A stretch of 51,356 nt of DNA from the NCBI GenBank assembly GCA_031394595.1, contig JANNTZ010000325.1:1-51356 (forward strand), in the 5' to 3' direction. Below the pieces are notes generated by a model, which was not told the origin of the DNA, ran no database searches, and saw only the letters and a list, made by a program, of their open reading frames with translations. This DNA is from Acidobacteriota bacterium (GTDB taxonomy: Bacteria > Acidobacteriota > Polarisedimenticolia > Gp22-AA2). The number at the start of each line of letters is the position of its first letter. Position 1 is the first letter of the stretch. This document shows positions 4,324-30,350 of the stretch, piece by piece. A program made the position numbers and the translations under genes.

Positions 4324-5822
4324 TCCGGCTGCATCCCCGAGTCGGACTGAACGCGAATCGCCCCGGCCCGCACGTGGGTCCACGACTCGATCTGCGCGAT
4401 GCGGTCCTCGACGTGGGCAGCGAGACGCGGGTGGGCACGGACGATGACCGGCTCCCCGGGTAGCCCCGACGCCCGCCGGACAGCGCGCGCCACATCCAGG
4501 AGAAGCGTCTCGAGCGAGCGTACCCGTCCGCTTCCCTGGCAGGCCGCGCACGGCTCCATCAGGATGCGGTCCAGGCTCCTCTTGGTGCGCTGTCGCGTGA
4601 TCTCCACGAGCCCGAACTCGCTGATCTGGAGCATCCGGGATCGCGACCGGTCGCGACGCAGATCGGCCTCGAGCGCCGCCGCCACACGCGTGCGACTCTC
4701 GGGCTGCTCCATGTCGATGAAATCGATCACGATGATCCCGCCGAGATCGCGCAGCCGGATCTGGCGCACGATTTCATGCACCGCCTCGAGGTTGGTCTTC
4801 AGGATGGTCTCCTCGGGATGGCGCGAGCCGACATACTTGCCGGTGTTGACATCGATTGCGACCAACGCCTCGGTCTGATGGACCACGATCGATCCGCCCG
4901 ACTTCAGCCAGACCCGTGGTCGGAGGGCTTTTTCGATCTGGGGATCGATACGCCGCGCCACGAACAGGGGCGGCCCCTCATGGAGACGCAGCCGGGACAG
5001 CAGATCCGGCTGGACCTCTTTGACGTAGGCGGTGGCCTGCCGGAAGGCCGGCTCCCCTTCGACCAGGACCTGCCCGGCGTCGTTCTGAAGGAGGTCCCTC
5101 AGGACCTTCTCCAGCACGCCGGACTCCTGGTGCAGCAGCGCCGGCGCGGCCCGGGTCTCCGCCTGTTGGCGAATCGCCCGCCACCGGTTCGCGAGTTCCC
5201 GCGCATCCCGTTCGAAGACTCCGGCTTCCAGCCCTTCACCGGCGGTGCGGATGATGTAGCCGCCACCGTCTCCCACGGCCGCCGACAGATCGCGTGCGAT
5301 GCCCCGCAGGCGCTCGCGTTCCCCTTCGGCCGCGATGCGCCGCGAGACGCCGCAGTGCGCCACGGTCGGCAGAAACACCAGGAGCCGCCCGGGCAGCGAG
5401 ACATGGGCGGTGATCCGGACCCCCTTCTGCCCGACCGGATCCTTGGTGATCTGCACCACCAGGTCCTGCCCGGGACGCAGGAGGTCTTCGATCCGGGGGC
5501 GCGGTGCCTGCGGCGGGGGAAGCGCCCCTTCGAACTCGGCCTCGACCAGGCCCTCCCAGGCCGGGCCGACGACGAGGTCATCGACGTACAGGAAAGCGTC
5601 CCGTTCGAGCCCGATGTCGACGAATGCCGCCTGCATCCCCGGCAAGACGTTGCTGACACGACCCCGGCAGACGTTGCCCGCCACGCCCCGGTCGGCGACC
5701 CGTTCGACGAATAACTCGACGAGCAGGTCATCCTCGAGGACGGCAATGCGGGTCTCACCCGGCGATCCCTCGACCAGGATCTCGCGGCGGGTGGTGTCGC
5801 GGTCAGTGTCGGATGCCGCCAT
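4272..5822 (-). CDS. rng: Rne/Rng family ribonuclease (RNase G-like)
   Basis: S1 region GRVSNVLPGMQAAFVDIG, TEALVAIDVNTG, RLRDLGGIIVIDFIDM, C-terminal CxxCxG. Last gene of the mre-mrd operon. Confidence 0.93.
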   Translation of the reverse strand: MAASDTDRDTTRREILVEGSPGETRIAVLEDDLLVELFVERVADRGVAGNVCRGRVSNVLPGMQAAFVDIGLERDAFLYVDDLVVGPAWEGLVEAEFEGALPPPQAPRPRIEDLLRPGQDLVVQITKDPVGQKGVRITAHVSLPGRLLVFLPTVAHCGVSRRIAAEGERERLRGIARDLSAAVGDGGGYIIRTAGEGLEAGVFERDARELANRWRAIRQQAETRAAPALLHQESGVLEKVLRDLLQNDAGQVLVEGEPAFRQATAYVKEVQPDLLSRLRLHEGPPLFVARRIDPQIEKALRPRVWLKSGGSIVVHQTEALVAIDVNTGKYVGSRHPEETILKTNLEAVHEIVRQIRLRDLGGIIVIDFIDMEQPESRTRVAAALEADLRRDRSRSRMLQISEFGLVEITRQRTKRSLDRILMEPCAACQGSGRVRSLETLLLDVARAVRRASGLPGEPVIVRAHPRLAAHVEDRIAQIESWTHVRAGAIRVQSDSGMQPDQFNVGDGGPPAGPLPG

Positions 5823-24423: not shown

Positions 24424-26577
24424 TCAGTCCCGCCCCGGAAGACGGCGACGCAGACGATCGAGAACCCCGCGTATCTCCTGCGCTCCCGGCTGGCCGGGAT
24501 CCAGCCGCAGCGACTCCTCCAGATGCCGCACTGCCCGTTCGAGATCGCCGCCGGGGTCCGCATACAGGAGGCCGAGGCTCCGGTGGGCGTCCGCGAGCGT
24601 CGGATCGATCCGCAGCGCTCCGATGTACTGCTTCATCGCCGCCGTCCGCTCGCCGCGGGCGGCCAGCAGGTAACCGAGAAAATTGGCCGCCCGCGCCGAC
24701 GGCGGAGACCCACCCGCCGCGGCGCGGAACTCGATCTCGGCCGTCGCACGATCCCCGCGCCGGAAGGCGACTTCTCCGATCCCGCGACGCACTTCGGGGT
24801 GGACCGGATCGATTCGGGCCGCCTCGAGGAATCGGCGGTCGGCATCCTCGCCCCGGCCGGCCGCCAGCAGGGCGTCCGCGAGGTTGACGCGATAGATCGC
24901 GGTCCGTGGATCGAGATCGACGGCCCGCTCAAGGGTGGTGACGGCCGCGCCCACTTCTCCGCGCGCCAGATGGACCGAGCCGAGGTCGTTCCACGCCAGT
25001 GGCAGATCGGGATCGATCGCCAGAGCCCGGCGGAACTCCGCCTCCGCCCGGACCAGATCGCCCGCTGCCCGGTGCGCCGTACCAAGGTTGACGGCAAGGA
25101 GTGCGTTCCGCGGTTGATCGACCACCGCCGCCGTCAGCAGGTCGCGTCCCTCCACCGCCCGGCCCTGCTGCACCAGCGCCATCCCCAGGTTGACCCGCGC
25201 GTCGGCGAACTGCGGGTAAATGGCCAGGGCCGCCCGGTAGTGGGCCTCCGCCTCGTCGTAGGTCGCCTCCCGGAGATACGCGTTCCCCAGGTTGTAGCGG
25301 ATCCGGGCGCTGCGTGGTGAAACCTGCGCGGCGCTGCTGTACAGGGAGAAATCGTCCTTCCACTCCGGGATACGGACCCAGGCCCGGGCCGCGGCCACCC
25401 CGACGATCAGGCTCCCGGCGGTGAGGCACACGGACGCGGTCCGCCCGCGGCCCGCCCCGACCAGCACGCCGAACAGCAGACAGACGCCCACACTCGGGAG
25501 ATACATCAGCCGCTCCGCCAGCAGCGTGCCGATGAAGACGACAAGATTGCTCGCCAGCGCCGCGCTGATGGCGATCCAGAGAAGCGCGAACGCGGCGGCG
25601 GGTCGGCGCCGGATCAGCAACGCCCCGCCCCCGACCGTGAGCAGGACGACCGCCAGACCGATCGTCGCCAGTGGGTCGCCTGGCCATCGGATCACCGGGA
25701 TCTGATCGAACGAGTAGTCGGCCGACAGGCGCGCGGGCCAGACCAGGAGACCCGCGTAACGGGCCACGGCGCCCAGGGCCGTCAATCGTCCCTCCACCGG
25801 CCCCGCGGATGCCGCCGGGTTGTCCACGAACGGCACCGCCCCTCCGACCCCGAGGGACCCGAGGGCGGCGACACGCAGGCCGAGATAGACCAGGAGGACC
25901 ACGCCATAGCCGGCGTACAGCAGGGTCCGGCGGCGGCCGGTGGGTGCTGAGCGCGGAAACGCGAGGCCGTCAAGAACGCTGAGGATCGGGGCGACGATCG
26001 CCGACTCCTTCGCCATCACACCGATGAGGTACGCAACCCAGGCCGCCGCAGTCAGACCGGTTGCTCGACGGCCCGTGGCGCGCGCCGCCAGCCGGTGACA
26101 GATCAGCGTGCCGAGGACGCCGCAGGCGGCAAGGAGTTCCGCCCGGCCGACAATCCCGGCGACCGCCTCCACATGGATCGGGTGCGCCGCGAACAGCAAC
26201 CCGGCGAACAGCGGCGCCGCCGTGCCGCCCAGAAGGCCAGCGGCGAGACGGACGACCAGCCAGGTGGCCAGGCCATGGAGAACCACGTTGACCAGATGGA
26301 ACGTCCGTGGACGCAGGCCACCTGCCACGGCGTGGTCGAGACCGAAGGTCGCACTGGTCAGGGGTCGGTACAGCGTCCGGTCGCGCACCGCGGTGTTCCA
26401 ATACGGCGTGACGAAAACGCGCTGCAGCTGCCCCGGGTCCCGGACCAACGGGTTCAGGCCGATGGCTGCATGATCGTCGAATACAAAGTCATGGCCGAGG
26501 GTCGGCAGGTAAAGCAGGAGGGCCAGAACAGGACCGGCGAAGAGCAGGACCCGCCGGACCGCGGCCCGGTCCGTCAA
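24424..26577 (-). CDS. TMTC-like GT-C membrane glycosyltransferase (DUF1736-like) with C-terminal TPR repeats
   Basis: FVFDDH loop, LYRPL, HLVNVVLH, HPIHVEAVAGIVGRAELLA, KESAI, SADYSF, AERLMYLPS, then TPRs. TTG start overlaps the upstream stop by 4 bp. Confidence 0.85.
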   Translation of the reverse strand: MTDRAAVRRVLLFAGPVLALLLYLPTLGHDFVFDDHAAIGLNPLVRDPGQLQRVFVTPYWNTAVRDRTLYRPLTSATFGLDHAVAGGLRPRTFHLVNVVLHGLATWLVVRLAAGLLGGTAAPLFAGLLFAAHPIHVEAVAGIVGRAELLAACGVLGTLICHRLAARATGRRATGLTAAAWVAYLIGVMAKESAIVAPILSVLDGLAFPRSAPTGRRRTLLYAGYGVVLLVYLGLRVAALGSLGVGGAVPFVDNPAASAGPVEGRLTALGAVARYAGLLVWPARLSADYSFDQIPVIRWPGDPLATIGLAVVLLTVGGGALLIRRRPAAAFALLWIAISAALASNLVVFIGTLLAERLMYLPSVGVCLLFGVLVGAGRGRTASVCLTAGSLIVGVAAARAWVRIPEWKDDFSLYSSAAQVSPRSARIRYNLGNAYLREATYDEAEAHYRAALAIYPQFADARVNLGMALVQQGRAVEGRDLLTAAVVDQPRNALLAVNLGTAHRAAGDLVRAEAEFRRALAIDPDLPLAWNDLGSVHLARGEVGAAVTTLERAVDLDPRTAIYRVNLADALLAAGRGEDADRRFLEAARIDPVHPEVRRGIGEVAFRRGDRATAEIEFRAAAGGSPPSARAANFLGYLLAARGERTAAMKQYIGALRIDPTLADAHRSLGLLYADPGGDLERAVRHLEESLRLDPGQPGAQEIRGVLDRLRRRLPGRD

Positions 26578-27428
26578 GGGTCGCGGGTCGCGGTGCCGCC
26601 CGTCCCCTCCGGGGCGGCGGCGCCCGCGGGTCCAGCCGCACCGGGGGGGGACGCCGCCAGCAGTTTCACGTCACGGAGCCCGCCGCCGCGCATGTCGACA
26701 CGCCCCTCGACCTGGGTGTGACGGCCCTCTTCCACGGCAACATCCAGCAGGAAAGTCGTGGCCCGGTGGATGTAGACGCCGCTCCGGGTCAGCAGATCGA
26801 TGGCGAGGTAGAGATCGTAGACACCCGGCGCAAGGTCGAAATCCATCCGTTCGGCCACCGTCGCGCAGCGGTTGATCTCGCTCCAGTACGGGACAAGATC
26901 ACCGGGAGCGATGCGCCGAGCCGGCGGTACTGTGGCACCGCTGTCGGACACCTGGGGCGAGGGTGTCGCGACATTCGGCGTGAGCCCCGCCTTCGAGGCC
27001 GGTCGCCAGGTCGCGGTGCGGATCAGCGGCGACTCGAACAGCAGGATGGCTTCGTCGGCGCTCCCCCGCTTCACCGCGGCGAGGATCATCTGGTACCCGA
27101 AGGTGACAATGGTCGTGGCGCCCCTGGCCGGTTTCCGCCCCTGCGGTGGGTTCTGCTTGACGACCCGGTCATCCTGCGCTGTACACCAGCGACGGTTGCC
27201 GTCGAAAGCGATCCGGAGGCGACCGGTCCCGGGCACGGGACTCTCGGCCAGATCCATCGCCCTGATGTGCGGCGGCCGCACCTCCGGAGCCGGGATCGAG
27301 ATGATCTCGTCCTCGATCGGCTCGGCGACATCGACCGGTTCGTCAGGATCCTGGATGGGCGGCGCCGCGCCGGTGGCAGCCACTGCAGCCAGGACCGCCC
27401 AGACGACGAGCCCGCTTCGAAGACCCAT
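26574..27428 (-). CDS. Exported hypothetical protein
   Basis: Signal peptide MGLRSGLVVWAVLAAVAATGAA. Coupled to the TMTC-like gene. Confidence 0.7.
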   Translation of the reverse strand: MGLRSGLVVWAVLAAVAATGAAPPIQDPDEPVDVAEPIEDEIISIPAPEVRPPHIRAMDLAESPVPGTGRLRIAFDGNRRWCTAQDDRVVKQNPPQGRKPARGATTIVTFGYQMILAAVKRGSADEAILLFESPLIRTATWRPASKAGLTPNVATPSPQVSDSGATVPPARRIAPGDLVPYWSEINRCATVAERMDFDLAPGVYDLYLAIDLLTRSGVYIHRATTFLLDVAVEEGRHTQVEGRVDMRGGGLRDVKLLAASPPGAAGPAGAAAPEGTGGTATRDP

Positions 27429-27513
27429 CCTCGTTCCCCTCCCGCCCGCCGGGATCCGATGGCTGTGGTAGAGTGACGGTCAGTTCACCCGGCCGGATGA
27501 CCGGAGCAGCGGC

Positions 27514-27542
27514 ATTATAGCCTCCGCTTCAGGGACCGCCAA
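27514..27542 (-). promoter_or_regulatory. sigma70 promoter for the exported protein-TMTC operon
   Basis: TTGGCG (27542-27537), 17 bp spacer, TATAAT (27519-27514). Confidence 0.6.
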
Positions 27543-27592
27543 TCAGGATGGGTGGATTCCGGCGGACGCCCGATCGGGGATCGGGAAGGAAA

Positions 27593-27749
27593 CATGGTTT
27601 TCCCGGAACTGCCTCTGTTCCGTCGACTGAGGTTGACTTACGTGGAGCCGGAGGCCGAACCTCCGGCCATCTTGAGGGGAAAGTCGTGCGGAGGTCTCAA
27701 GGACGCGGTCAACTTCTGGAAGGCGGGCAGTTCCGGGAAATTCACCATG
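27593..27749. ncRNA. Candidate structured RNA (long closing stem with branched top), identity unknown
   Basis: Perfect 15-bp inverted repeat TTTCCCGGAACTGCC (27599-27613) / GGCAGTTCCGGGAAA (27726-27740), extended by CATGGT/ACCATG. Inner stems GAGGTTGAC/GTCAACTTC, CCGGAGG/CCTCCGG and CTTGAG/CTCAAG. Confidence 0.4.
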
Positions 27750-27849
27750 CGTCACCAGACATCCCGCGGACCCGCCACCTCGTCGGCGCCGGTCGTCCGC
27801 ATCCCGTTCGACTTGCCTCTGGATCATAGGCCTCGACTGCAACTTTCAT
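27742..27849 (-). CDS. Candidate small ORF (35 aa)
   Basis: MKVAVEAYDPEASRTGCGRPAPTRWRVRGMSGDAW. AGGA lies 5 nt before the ATG, downstream of a consensus promoter. The stop overlaps the base of the long hairpin. Confidence 0.3.
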   Translation of the reverse strand: MKVAVEAYDPEASRTGCGRPAPTRWRVRGMSGDAW

Positions 27850-27901
27850 GAGCGTCCTGTCATCCGTCTGCGCTTCAAAGGAAAATTGAACGGTGCATCG
27901 G

Positions 27902-27930
27902 ACAGTACTCAACATCTAGGGCCGTGTCAA
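27902..27930 (-). promoter_or_regulatory. Strong sigma70 promoter pointing into the 27.5-27.9 kb intergenic element
   Basis: TTGACA (27930-27925), 17 bp spacer, TACTGT (27907-27902). Confidence 0.65.
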
Positions 27931-27959
27931 GCCCCCCGACACAAAATGTTGTAGTCCCG

Positions 27960-30350
27960 ATGCCGGCGGTCGCCGACGACCACGTCCTGGAATCGCTCGA
28001 TTTCCCGCGCGTCCTGGAGCGGCTCGCGGCTGAGACCGCGACCCCGATCGGCGCCGCCCGGGCCCTCGAAGTCCGTCCCCAGGCCGACCCTGAAGCGGTC
28101 CGCCGCGACATCGCCCTCACGGCCGAAACGTTGCGTCACCTCGAGGCGCGCGGCACCCTGCCGTTCGGGACGATTCCGGACCCGCGGCCGGTCCTGGAGC
28201 GGCTCGAAATCGAAGGGAGCGTCCTCGCCCCGGCCGAGGTTCTCGACCTCGTCGTCCTGGTGAAGTCGGGGCGCGCCGTGAAGTCATTTCTCACCGAAGC
28301 CCGCTCGCTGTTCCCGGCGCTGTGGGAACTCGGGCGCGACCTTCCCGACCTCGGGAACCTGGTCCGCTACCTCGATGGCAAGATTGCGGCGACCGGCGAG
28401 ATCGAAGATGGCGCCAGTGACGAACTCCAGACCATCCGTCACGAGATCCGGCGGACCACGTCCCGCGTGCAGGTGGTCCTCGAGGAAATCCTGGCGCGGC
28501 CCGGCACCGACCGGCTGCTCCAGGACCATTTCATCTCGGTGCGCGGCGACCGGCATGTCGTGCCGGTCCGTGCCGAGGCGAGGGCCGGCCTGCCTGGCAT
28601 CGTGCACGGTGTCTCGGGGAGCGGCGCCACCGTCTTCGTCGAGCCGATGGAAACCGTCGAGCTCAACAACGAGATCGTCACGCAGCGCGACCGCGAGGCG
28701 GCCGAGGTCCACCGTCTCCTGCGCGAGTACAGCGATCTCCTGCGCGGCCGGCTGCCGGAGGTGCGCACCCTGGTGGCCGGGATCGCCCGGCTCGATCTGG
28801 TGGTGGCGCGCGCCCGGCTGGCCCACGTTCTCGGGGCCGCCCCGCCGGAAACCTTGACCGGCCCCGGTCTGAGTCTCGAGGGGGCCCGTCATCCCCTGGT
28901 TGAAAGCAGCCTGCGCGTCGAAGGCGCCCGGATCGTGCCGCTCGACCTGGCGCTGTCCGGAGAGACGCAGGTGCTGGTGATCAGCGGCCCGAACACCGGC
29001 GGGAAGACGGTCGCGCTGAAGACGCTCGGTCTGTGCGCGGTGATGCACCAGTCCGGCTTGCTGGTTCCCGCGACGCGAGCGCTGCTCCCCGTCTACCGCC
29101 GTCTGTTCATCGACATCGGCGACCGGCAGTCGATCGCCGATGGCCTCAGCACCTTCTCCGCCCGCATCCGCGGTCTGGCGGCGATCGCGGCTGACCTTGC
29201 CGTACCGTGCCTGGTGCTCCTCGACGAGATCGGGACGGGAACCGATCCGGAGGAAGGAGCGGCGCTGGCGATCGCGACGCTGGACTACCTGCGGGATCAC
29301 GGCGCCGTGGTGGTGGCGACCACGCACCTCGAAGCGCTCAAGGCGCACGCGGCGACCACCCCGGGCTGCGCCAATGCCGGCATGGAACTGGACGAGCGGA
29401 CGCTCCGGCCCACGTACCGTCTGGTGCCCGGAATTCCGTCGCGCAGCGGCGGGATCGCCATCGCCGAGCGGCTGGGTCTGCCGGCGGCCCTGCTCGATGC
29501 GGCCCGGGCCCGTTGCGGCACCGCGGGCCGGCAGGTCGCGGAATACCTGGCGCAACTGCACGACATGACCGCCGCCCTCGAGACCCGCCTGCGGGCGGTG
29601 GACGAGGCGCGGGCGACCCTCTCCCGCGAGCGCGACGCCCTGCAGGCGGACTTCGCCGGTCGCGAAGCGAGGCTGCGTGCAGCGGTCGCCCTGGAGATCG
29701 AACTGGCGCTCGGGGCGATGCGGGCCGAGGGCGAGACCTACATGAAATCGCTCCAGGACCGCCATCTCGCGGCGACGCTGCGGCGGCAGGAGTCCAAGGC
29801 GGCCGCGTCGATGAAGGATCGAGCCCGCGAACTGCTACGCCGCGCCCGACGGTCGGAGTCGGAGGGTTCGGCGCCCGCGGAATTGCGACCGGGGATGCAG
29901 GTCCTGGCCCAGGGGATGGGTCTGCGCGGGACGATCGACACCCTCAGGGGCGGCAAGGTGGTCATCCTGGTGCGCGGCCGGCGGGTCAGCGTCGCGGCCG
30001 CCGACTGCGTTCCCGATGACCAGGAGGGGCCCGTGTCCACCGGCCTTCATCTCCCTGCCGGCGTCCGGCTCTTGCGCCGTCCCGGGCCGCGGTCCGGGGG
30101 TGAGGAGGCTCCCCCACTCCACCTGGTCGGACGCACGGTGGAGGAGGCCCTGCCCCTGGTCGACAAGTATCTCGATGATGCGGTCCTCGACGGCCGGAGT
30201 CCGATTCAACTGATCCACGGCGTCGGATCGGGGCGCCTGCGGGCGGCGATCGCCCGCCTGCTTTCGCAGCATCCACAAGTGGAGAGCTTCACCGCCGCTC
30301 CGCCCGATCAGGGCGGATCCGGGGTCACCCTGGTGGTGCTGCGAACCTGA
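27960..30350 (+). CDS. mutS2: Endonuclease MutS2
   Basis: SGSGATVFVEP, Walker A ISGPNTGGKT, DIGDRQSI..LSTFS, LLDEIGTGTDPEEG, C-terminal Smr domain LIHGVGSGRLR..GG.GVT. Confidence 0.95.
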   Translation: MPAVADDHVLESLDFPRVLERLAAETATPIGAARALEVRPQADPEAVRRDIALTAETLRHLEARGTLPFGTIPDPRPVLERLEIEGSVLAPAEVLDLVVLVKSGRAVKSFLTEARSLFPALWELGRDLPDLGNLVRYLDGKIAATGEIEDGASDELQTIRHEIRRTTSRVQVVLEEILARPGTDRLLQDHFISVRGDRHVVPVRAEARAGLPGIVHGVSGSGATVFVEPMETVELNNEIVTQRDREAAEVHRLLREYSDLLRGRLPEVRTLVAGIARLDLVVARARLAHVLGAAPPETLTGPGLSLEGARHPLVESSLRVEGARIVPLDLALSGETQVLVISGPNTGGKTVALKTLGLCAVMHQSGLLVPATRALLPVYRRLFIDIGDRQSIADGLSTFSARIRGLAAIAADLAVPCLVLLDEIGTGTDPEEGAALAIATLDYLRDHGAVVVATTHLEALKAHAATTPGCANAGMELDERTLRPTYRLVPGIPSRSGGIAIAERLGLPAALLDAARARCGTAGRQVAEYLAQLHDMTAALETRLRAVDEARATLSRERDALQADFAGREARLRAAVALEIELALGAMRAEGETYMKSLQDRHLAATLRRQESKAAASMKDRARELLRRARRSESEGSAPAELRPGMQVLAQGMGLRGTIDTLRGGKVVILVRGRRVSVAAADCVPDDQEGPVSTGLHLPAGVRLLRRPGPRSGGEEAPPLHLVGRTVEEALPLVDKYLDDAVLDGRSPIQLIHGVGSGRLRAAIARLLSQHPQVESFTAAPPDQGGSGVTLVVLRT

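Follow-up and report, generated by a model that had tools for sequence, protein, structure and literature searches.

Comparative genomics has yielded large sets of candidate non-coding RNA motifs, one of 104 candidates that includes Acido-1 and Acido-Lenti-1 (PMC2864571) and another of 224 candidates (PMC5737381). Orphan motifs such as Acido-1 and Acido-Lenti-1 are restricted to particular lineages, lie between genes, are supported by covariation, have no assigned function, and are found in Acidobacteriota and in metagenomes. The element described here, which resembles them in all of these respects, lies within the 495-nt gap 27429-27923 of a 51,356-nt stretch of DNA from an Acidobacteriota bacterium (contig JANNTZ010000325.1 of assembly GCA_031394595.1; the whole stretch is called the window below). 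The gap separates a divergent mutS2 gene on the plus strand from an operon on the minus strand that consists of a gene for a secreted protein, named sec284 here, and a TMTC-like gene. Most of the orphan motifs lack direct metatranscriptome support, in contrast to the element, which has it but has no match in Rfam 15. A search of the whole window with the 4227 Rfam families at gathering thresholds found nothing, as did searches of 27300-28050 at E ≤ 10 and of 13 homologous loci at E ≤ 1, in agreement with the original prediction, which was made from the sequence alone and had recognized no known family. Nor did we find a description of the element in the literature on candidate structured RNA motifs in Acidobacteria and on Polarisedimenticolia. 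The element is a previously undescribed family of a known kind, the bacterial structured small RNA (sRNA).

We regard it as very probable that this is a real, conserved and expressed RNA element of the minus strand. We also favor, though only modestly, the view that it is an independent, non-coding RNA that acts in trans.

Several well-studied RNAs invite comparison. The 6C RNA of Actinobacteria and RsaE/RoxS of Firmicutes have a stable stem-loop with an exposed, conserved C-rich motif, as does the element (UCCCC; CCUCC in the window). The C-rich motifs of 6C RNA and RsaE/RoxS pair with G-rich ribosome-binding sites. Unlike these RNAs, the element is much larger and is closed by a 30-bp rod, and the lack of an Rfam hit marks it as non-homologous to them. 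The 6S RNA likewise appears in many RNA datasets and has rod-like pairing between its 5' and 3' parts with sequence-conserved helices, but the element has no symmetric central bubble, its apex is branched, and it does not match the Rfam 6S model. In hok/sok type I toxin mRNAs a long-range 5'-3' helix surrounds a short open reading frame (ORF) and buries the region just past its start. The same fold-back geometry is found here, with a GUG or AUG directly 5' of the 16-bp closing helix P1 and the partner strand past the stop, although the likeness goes no further than resemblance. The element's peptide is neither hydrophobic nor conserved, no antisense RNA is evident as far as unstranded contigs can show, and the element is single-copy and chromosomally fixed, all of which speaks against the type I toxin-antitoxin-like unit that the original prediction had entertained.

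Relatives and consensus fold

About 45 copies of the element were recovered from uncultured Acidobacteriota of soil and sediment, namely Candidatus Polarisedimenticolia, the class equivalent to subdivision 22 (PMC8528874), and relatives. A MutS2-guided scan of species-representative genomes supplied the closest of them, the uncultured Acidobacteriota 'gp22 AA2' (MutS2 59% identical) and SCS3bin.39 (52%). When the gap was compared by nhmmer with the DNA upstream of these two mutS2 genes, the E-values were 5.5e-23 and 3.9e-21, respectively, and the hairpin core was the strongest stretch, with nucleotide identities of 77% and 74%. A degenerate pattern built from the invariant 5' strand retrieved 43 metagenome loci, 39 of them true copies, and five more copies, one labelled Candidatus Polarisedimenticolia, were reached independently through sec284 homologues. 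The order mutS2 (divergent), element, sec284, TMTC-like gene is kept in every locus long enough to judge.

A covariance model derived from the alignment found exactly one copy per locus, no copy elsewhere in the window, and none in the loci of more distant MutS2 genes. The arm sequence occurs a single time in the window, with no other match, and the plasmids and phages searched contained no match to the element. A known dispersed repeat had been named in the original prediction as an outcome that would overturn it; such a repeat, whether a repetitive extragenic palindrome (REP) or a miniature inverted-repeat transposable element (MITE), and a mobile element are rejected on the basis of the single copy, the one fixed syntenic site and the lack of plasmid or phage matches. 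Eight hits of the pattern to viral contigs were due to chance, as they failed the covariance model and had no synteny.

All of the features that had been picked out in the window from its letters alone are present where they had been placed, including the minus-strand promoter TTGACA-17-TACTGT, the inner stems GUUGAC/GUCAAC and CUUGAG/CUCAAG, the 10-bp GGCCGGAGGU hairpin, the CCCGATC-CCC-GATCGGG hairpin, and the promoter of the next gene. The main hairpin spans 157 nt (27749-27593) and the conserved core 150 nt. It is closed by a perfect 15-nt inverted repeat (27726-27740 with 27599-27613), which in the sub-lineage of the window is lengthened by CATGGT/ACCATG (27749-27744 with 27598-27593). 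Its predicted energy is -71 kcal/mol on the minus strand (z = -5.5) and -81 kcal/mol on the plus strand (z = -5.9), and on either strand none of 200 shuffles folded as well. For the whole 495-nt gap the z-scores were an unremarkable -1.95 and -1.23; only the 157-nt hairpin stands out.

RNAalifold computed the consensus fold from 27 unique sequences, and the fold was unchanged when a model-based alignment of 36 was used. It consists of the 16-bp P1, in which UUCCCGGAACUGCCCG pairs with CGGGCAGUUCCGGGAA (the two innermost pairs are mismatched in the window), the 3-bp P1b, P2 with P2b, a variable C-rich arm and an apical hairpin, P4. The strands of P2 carry the invariant GUUGAC/GUCAAC. An unpaired UCCCC motif in the loop of P3 is kept in nearly all relatives, with alignment positions T68, C70, C71 and C72 invariant and C69 conserved in at least 90%.

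Two lines of evidence support this fold. First, 98.0% of 1507 alignment cells at the paired positions can pair, a value that drops to 29-48% when the partners are slid by 1-3 columns. Secondly, both partners have changed at six pairs (one in P1, one in P1b, one in the small hairpin and three in P4), a count that was reached by 2 of 500 shuffles. P4 is the most covarying helix, with U-A replaced by C-G in 9 sequences, G-C by A-U in 5, and many G-U wobbles. In P1b, U-A is replaced by C-G in 3 sequences. The 16 pairs of P1 are 99% paired; 12 of them never vary, and the double change, from C-G to U-A, is found in two sequences (L063, L064). P1 and P2, which together make up the rod of about 30 bp, show substitution in one lineage only, despite MutS2 proteins that are 50-65% identical to that of the window. 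Conservation is concentrated in the stems, whereas the apex and the multiloop vary. This is the reverse of what is seen in riboswitches and other ligand-binding leaders, which have conserved junctions and loops and freely covarying stems.

Strand and transcripts

The RNA is probably transcribed from the minus strand, as judged from the asymmetry of wobble pairs, the better consensus energy and the conserved promoter. G-U pairs occupy 88 cells of the consensus pairs when the minus strand is read and 17 when the plus strand is read; the consensus pairing holds in 98.0% of cells against 93.3%, and the consensus energy is -51.7 against -45.9 kcal/mol. Upstream on the minus strand stands the sigma-70-type TTGACA-17-TAnnnT promoter (promoter 1), which was found in all lineages examined with an invariant -35 TTGACA, the 17-nt spacing and the TAnnnT -10 element, at 56 to about 167 nt from the core. 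No plus-strand promoter was noticed in a brief look at the alignments by eye, which was not a systematic search. The original prediction had found that several G-U pairs suited the plus strand better. The lower energy of that strand in the window is real, but the comparative data give the minus strand. The same preference is seen in single-sequence folding, where the opposite, G-rich strand has the lower energy in 36 of 36 copies (alignment A4), with means of -77.7 against -66.4 kcal/mol for the strand supported here. This is a composition effect; when one strand is rich in G, its minimum free energy says little about which strand is transcribed.

These data also bear on a different explanation, according to which the two arms work in the DNA as paired operators, bound by a regulator that controls the divergent promoters of mutS2 and sec284, or the functional RNA is a plus-strand product. 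The arms are indeed invariant in sequence and contain the palindrome TTCC-C-GGAA, two operators would likewise stay identical if both arms changed in step, and the lower energy of the plus strand in every copy goes together with RNA contigs that are unstranded. On the other hand, P4 and P1b covary though they are not repeats of each other, the wobble count and the consensus fold favor the minus strand, a conserved minus-strand promoter faces the element, and the region is transcribed well above its neighbors. Taken together, this makes the operator or plus-strand explanation extremely improbable.

Evidence of expression comes from a sequence index, where more than 40 RNA runs, mostly environmental metatranscriptomes, contain parts of the element; the samples are freshwater sediment, soil and rhizosphere. 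On the window, the contigs from RNA runs cover 27552-27883, and none lies over mutS2. One metatranscriptome yields a single contig of 260 nt (27552-27811, 93% identity), and a contig of run X9 extends as far as 27883, which leaves 12 nt to the predicted start. In run X6 the contig ends at 27829 and continues as Illumina adapter sequence. This join implies many fragments ending at 27829, which lies about 66 nt past the predicted start and may be a discrete or processed 5' end. A strand call from the adapter was rejected, as the library chemistry is unknown. Among the soil relatives, four metatranscriptomes cover only 3846-4122 of L025, which is the element itself. In L022, two runs give contigs of 199 nt (4438-4636) and 205 nt (4452-4656) that are identical to the locus, and the second of these stops 3 nt past the GC-rich hairpin (4635-4653). 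The next contig is a separate one, with its first base at 4703, about 11 nt past the start predicted from the TATAAT at 4680-4685, so that a gap lies over promoter 2, the promoter of sec284. Such a pattern is expected if an independent RNA of about 230 nt is made and the mRNA that follows has a promoter of its own. Contigs confined to the unit, together with the conserved promoter, core, GC-rich hairpin and promoter 2, support the stand-alone structured RNA that the original prediction had listed among its options.

The unit as a whole measures about 340 nt in the window and about 230-270 nt in most relatives, and the distance from mutS2 to the element is correspondingly 222 nt against about 126 nt. 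At the position of the GC-rich hairpin the relatives have a hairpin of other sequence. No relative departs from the TATAAT of promoter 2, which mostly takes the form AGTATAAT and has a TTGrCC-like -35 element.

The same transcripts could be read as those of a cis-acting 5' leader of the sec284/TMTC-like operon, in which RNA from promoter 1 reads into the genes and the structure decides between a stop at the GC-rich hairpin and use of the downstream sequence. In a variant of this explanation, translation of a short GUG ORF perhaps opens P1. In favor of this explanation, the element is in all cases followed by the same two genes in its own orientation. Moreover, the contig of run X6 leads from 27829 across promoter 2 into sec284 without a break, and therefore termination is incomplete and some read-through occurs; a contig of run X26 likewise passes the hairpin and the TATAAT in L025. 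A box resembling a Shine-Dalgarno (SD) sequence and a start codon stand at the foot of P1, every lineage has some ORF that runs across the 5' arm, and plentiful short leader fragments are typical of attenuators. Against a cis-acting leader, the never-varying TATAAT and its -35 element intervene between element and gene in every lineage, although in view of the read-through in run X6 this separation is not absolute, and in L022 the RNA falls into two contigs with the gap exactly over promoter 2. The GC-rich hairpin has no U tract, the helices rather than the junctions are conserved, and the synteny with mutS2 on the other side is equally constant, so that position alone does not discriminate. 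We therefore consider a cis-acting leader possible but rather unlikely.

Table 1. Positions in the window of the element, its parts and the flanking features (P1 to P4, helices of the consensus fold).
Feature	Position	Strand	Remarks
MutS2-type gene	likely start ATG 27960	plus	
Promoter 1	27902-27930	minus	TTGACA 27930-27925, 17-nt spacer, TACTGT 27907-27902
Predicted transcription start	~27898-27895	minus	from promoter 1
Variable 5' leader	27750-27898	minus	~145 nt in the window, only ~56 nt in most relatives
35-codon ORF	ATG 27849-27847 to TGA 27744-27742	minus	AGGA 27858-27855; part of ORF 27742-27915
Second small ORF	27638-27748	minus	MVNFPELPAFQKLTASLRPPHDFPLKMAGGSASGST; RFPELPAF...; start at the 5' foot of P1, stop before the 3' arm
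P1, 5' arm	27724-27739	minus	UUCCCGGAACUGCCCG; sub-lineage extension CAUGGU 27749-27744
P1b, P2 and P2b, 5' strands	27703-27721	minus	UUC (P1b), AAGUUGAC (P2, invariant core), GCGU (P2b)
P3, apical hairpin	27671-27701	minus	CUUGAG/CUCAAG, C-rich loop ACCUCCGCACGACUUUCCC; from the fold
P4, apical hairpin	27646-27668	minus	GGCCGGAGGU-UCG-GCCUCCGGCU, 10 bp; from fold and alignment
P2b, P2 and P1b, 3' strands	27618-27644	minus	CACG (P2b), GUCAACCU (P2), GGAA (P1b); asymmetric bulge between them
P1, 3' arm	27599-27614	minus	(A)GGCAGUUCCGGGAAA; sub-lineage extension ACCAUG 27598-27593
GC-rich hairpin	27569-27585	minus	CCCGAUC-CCC-GAUCGGG; terminator-like, no U tract
Promoter 2 (sec284)	27514-27542	minus	TTGGCG-17-TATAAT; scan: 1 site against 0.1 expected
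sec284 (name used here)	26574-27428	minus	284-aa secreted protein
TPR/TMTC-like glycosyltransferase gene	3' of sec284; pair 24424-27428	minus	717 aa; tetratricopeptide repeat (TPR), TMTC_DUF1736, O-mannosyltransferase-like

Small open reading frames

A dual-function sRNA and peptide had been suggested for this unit on account of its 35-codon ORF. This ORF sits in the leader segment that is missing from most relatives, whose leader of about 56 nt has no ATG. Within the sub-lineage of the window its counterpart is a peptide of about 40% identity (L062) or an in-frame fusion to the downstream ORF (L054). The dual-function suggestion is not supported for the 35-codon ORF, and the second small ORF, which begins at the foot of P1, fails the coding tests described below.

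Most copies have at this foot a GGAG-type box, 5-7 nt, a GUG, UUG or AUG codon and then RFPELPAFQKLTT..., giving an ORF of 33-41 codons. One could consequently view the unit as the mRNA of a small protein, or as a dual-function RNA, in which the GUG/AUG ORF (27748-27638 in the window) is translated and the 5'-3' helix keeps it silent until the RNA is opened or processed, much as fold-back inhibition does in type I toxin mRNAs. The box, spacing and start codon are kept in 8 of about 11 lineages, two changes of the start from GUG to UUG (L018, L049) leave a start codon in place, and the ORF begins at the foot of the 16-bp helix and in most copies ends before the 3' arm. The coding signal itself points the other way. 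In the frame of this ORF dN/dS is about 1.6, and the variable columns are distributed 11/13/8 over the codon positions, so that the third position varies least; the amino-acid-level purifying selection expected of a dual-function sRNA of the SgrS/SgrT type is not seen. The C-terminal third is read in two frames among the relatives because of a 1-nt indel in P4. L064 and L066 are left with a 10-codon ORF by a 1-nt insertion after the GUG, the L001 group and L067 lack a nearby start in frame, and the stop is lost in L018, L055, L064 and L066. Furthermore, the compensatory changes in P1 and P1b that preserve pairing alter the residues encoded (Pro to Ser, Phe to His). Three versions of the peptide had no significant match in Pfam or NCBIfam, only 2 predicted proteins among 5.8 billion match the 41-aa version, both gene-caller predictions, and the small-ORF peptides have no hydrophobic stretch. 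To judge from this comparison of sequences, the second ORF is probably not a conserved protein, and we hold a small-protein mRNA or dual-function RNA to be quite improbable.

The SD-like GGAG and the GUG, UUG or AUG at the foot of P1 are kept in most lineages, even where the frame is broken (L064, L066). The sub-lineage of the window has AUGGUG at this place (27743-27760) and no clear SD. The kept box and start codon sustain the idea of a translated leader at a low probability.

Possible mode of action and genomic surroundings

If the element is an independent RNA, transcription would begin near 27895, the variable leader would perhaps be trimmed (the end at 27829), and the transcript would mostly end past the GC-rich hairpin, near 27565. 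The rod of about 30 bp that joins the 5' and 3' parts would shield the RNA from nucleases and allow it to accumulate. Since the rod is invariant in sequence, recognition by a protein, or alternative pairings, are suggested, and the rod could serve as a module for protein binding and stability. The exposed apical UCCCC (CCUCC in the window, within the loop ACCUCCGCACGACUUUCCC) would pair with G-rich SD-like sites of target mRNAs. Given an independent RNA, this action in trans, which we draw by analogy with the C-rich sRNAs described above, is put forward tentatively, as somewhat less than an even prospect.

In the window, the loop sequence UUCCCCUC could pair without a mismatch with GAGGGGAA, which lies in the sec284 ribosome-binding region, although any C-rich loop fits any strong SD. 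A pairing between the foot of the element (UUGUGAGAUUCC) and a 5' motif of the neighboring gene was also considered. The foot is partly complementary to the sec284 5' motif in several lineages, including one apparent change from U-A to C-G, but the pairing is absent in the lineage of the window and was not adopted.

A bolder proposal is that a dedicated protein, or the ribosome, docks specifically on the rod. Instead of an ordinary base-pairing sRNA, the element would then be the heart of a new ribonucleoprotein, or a device that senses ribosomes, peculiar to subdivision-22 Acidobacteriota. The idea was raised by the near-invariant rod and by the SD-like box and start codon exactly at its foot, and we consider it unlikely.

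Our preference for an independent, trans-acting RNA should be interpreted with some caution, since a number of results weigh against it. Since P1 and P2 hardly vary, very few substitutions underlie most of the structure, and this invariance is partly a matter of ascertainment, given that 20 bases of the 5' strand were set in the search pattern. Copies reached through synteny alone (L001, L002, L062-L067) are equally conserved in P1 and P2, however, and therefore the constraint exceeds the needs of base pairing. The single-sequence energies favor the opposite strand throughout, and the RNA contigs are unstranded assemblies, so that strand and transcript ends had to be inferred. The GC-rich hairpin lacks a U tract and received no terminator call in the promoter and terminator scan, and the contig of run X6 continues into sec284. 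The constant place of the element, upstream of one and the same operon and in its orientation, is that of a cis-regulator, and the SD-like box with its start codon is left unexplained by a non-coding model. When the C-rich apical regions were compared with the translation starts of their neighbors for co-variation, cognate pairs reached a mean of -28.9 and non-cognate pairs one of -29.2 kcal/mol (p = 0.73), a weak negative, as this permutation test used imprecise start sites.

Soils and sediments commonly contain subdivision-22 Acidobacteriota, but none has been cultured, and RNA-based regulation in them is almost unstudied. Because of its conservation across the class, its strong promoter and its presence in more than 40 public RNA-sequencing runs, the element is probably among the more abundant non-ribosomal transcripts of the lineage. 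It would add a family to RNA databases and serve as a metatranscriptomic marker of the lineage's activity, and it poses a defined problem, namely why a 16-bp helix is held invariant in sequence. On present evidence it is one more orphan sRNA, which neither opens a new principle nor overturns one.

The neighboring protein encoded by sec284 has a signal peptide and a conserved GNRRWCT motif, and its gene overlaps by 4 nt with the start of the TPR/TMTC_DUF1736 gene. A profile search gave no significant Pfam or NCBIfam match for it. The pair of sec284 and the TMTC-like gene accompanies the element in every relative. Among 5.8 billion proteins, the homologues scored for sec284 numbered only 9, on account of the word filter and the low complexity of the protein. 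Across the gap the G+C content drops from about 0.70 to 0.53-0.60. Nearby genes in the window are housekeeping genes (class-V aminotransferase, DUF1015, DsbA-like thioredoxin, anthranilate synthase component I), with no gene for an RNA-binding protein close to the element, and a scan of the 51-kb window (1-51356) for tRNA and tmRNA found none.

The 17-nt spacer of promoter 1 (27908-27924) is conserved as well, as CCCTAGATGTTGAG in the window and CCCTATATCTTGGG in relatives. Upstream of its -35 element, which is only 30 nt from the likely start of mutS2, lies an A/T-rich block. The spacer and the block may represent a back-to-back mutS2 promoter or the site of a regulator.

On the other side of the element, the sec284 ORF with the best signal peptide begins 10-12 nt past the TATAAT of promoter 2 in several soil lineages (L022 4680-4699 and the equivalents in L052 and L031), which suggests that the predicted sec284 mRNA is leaderless or nearly so in these lineages. 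In the window, by contrast, sec284 has a 5' untranslated region (UTR) of about 80 nt with a strong SD. A second conserved motif is found in the sec284 5' UTR about 40-50 nt past the TATAAT (27463-27473 on the minus strand of the window, 4727-4739 in L022, and downstream in L025), with the sequence CUCUACCACAG in the window; soil relatives have AAUCUAGCACACAA or AAUGUAGCACACAAG instead. Some lineages have an ORF extended at its N-terminus, and the motif then lies within the extension (N-[VL]-[AP]-H-K). The copy in the window follows a stop codon and is not in the frame of the ORF, and therefore its conservation is at the nucleotide level.

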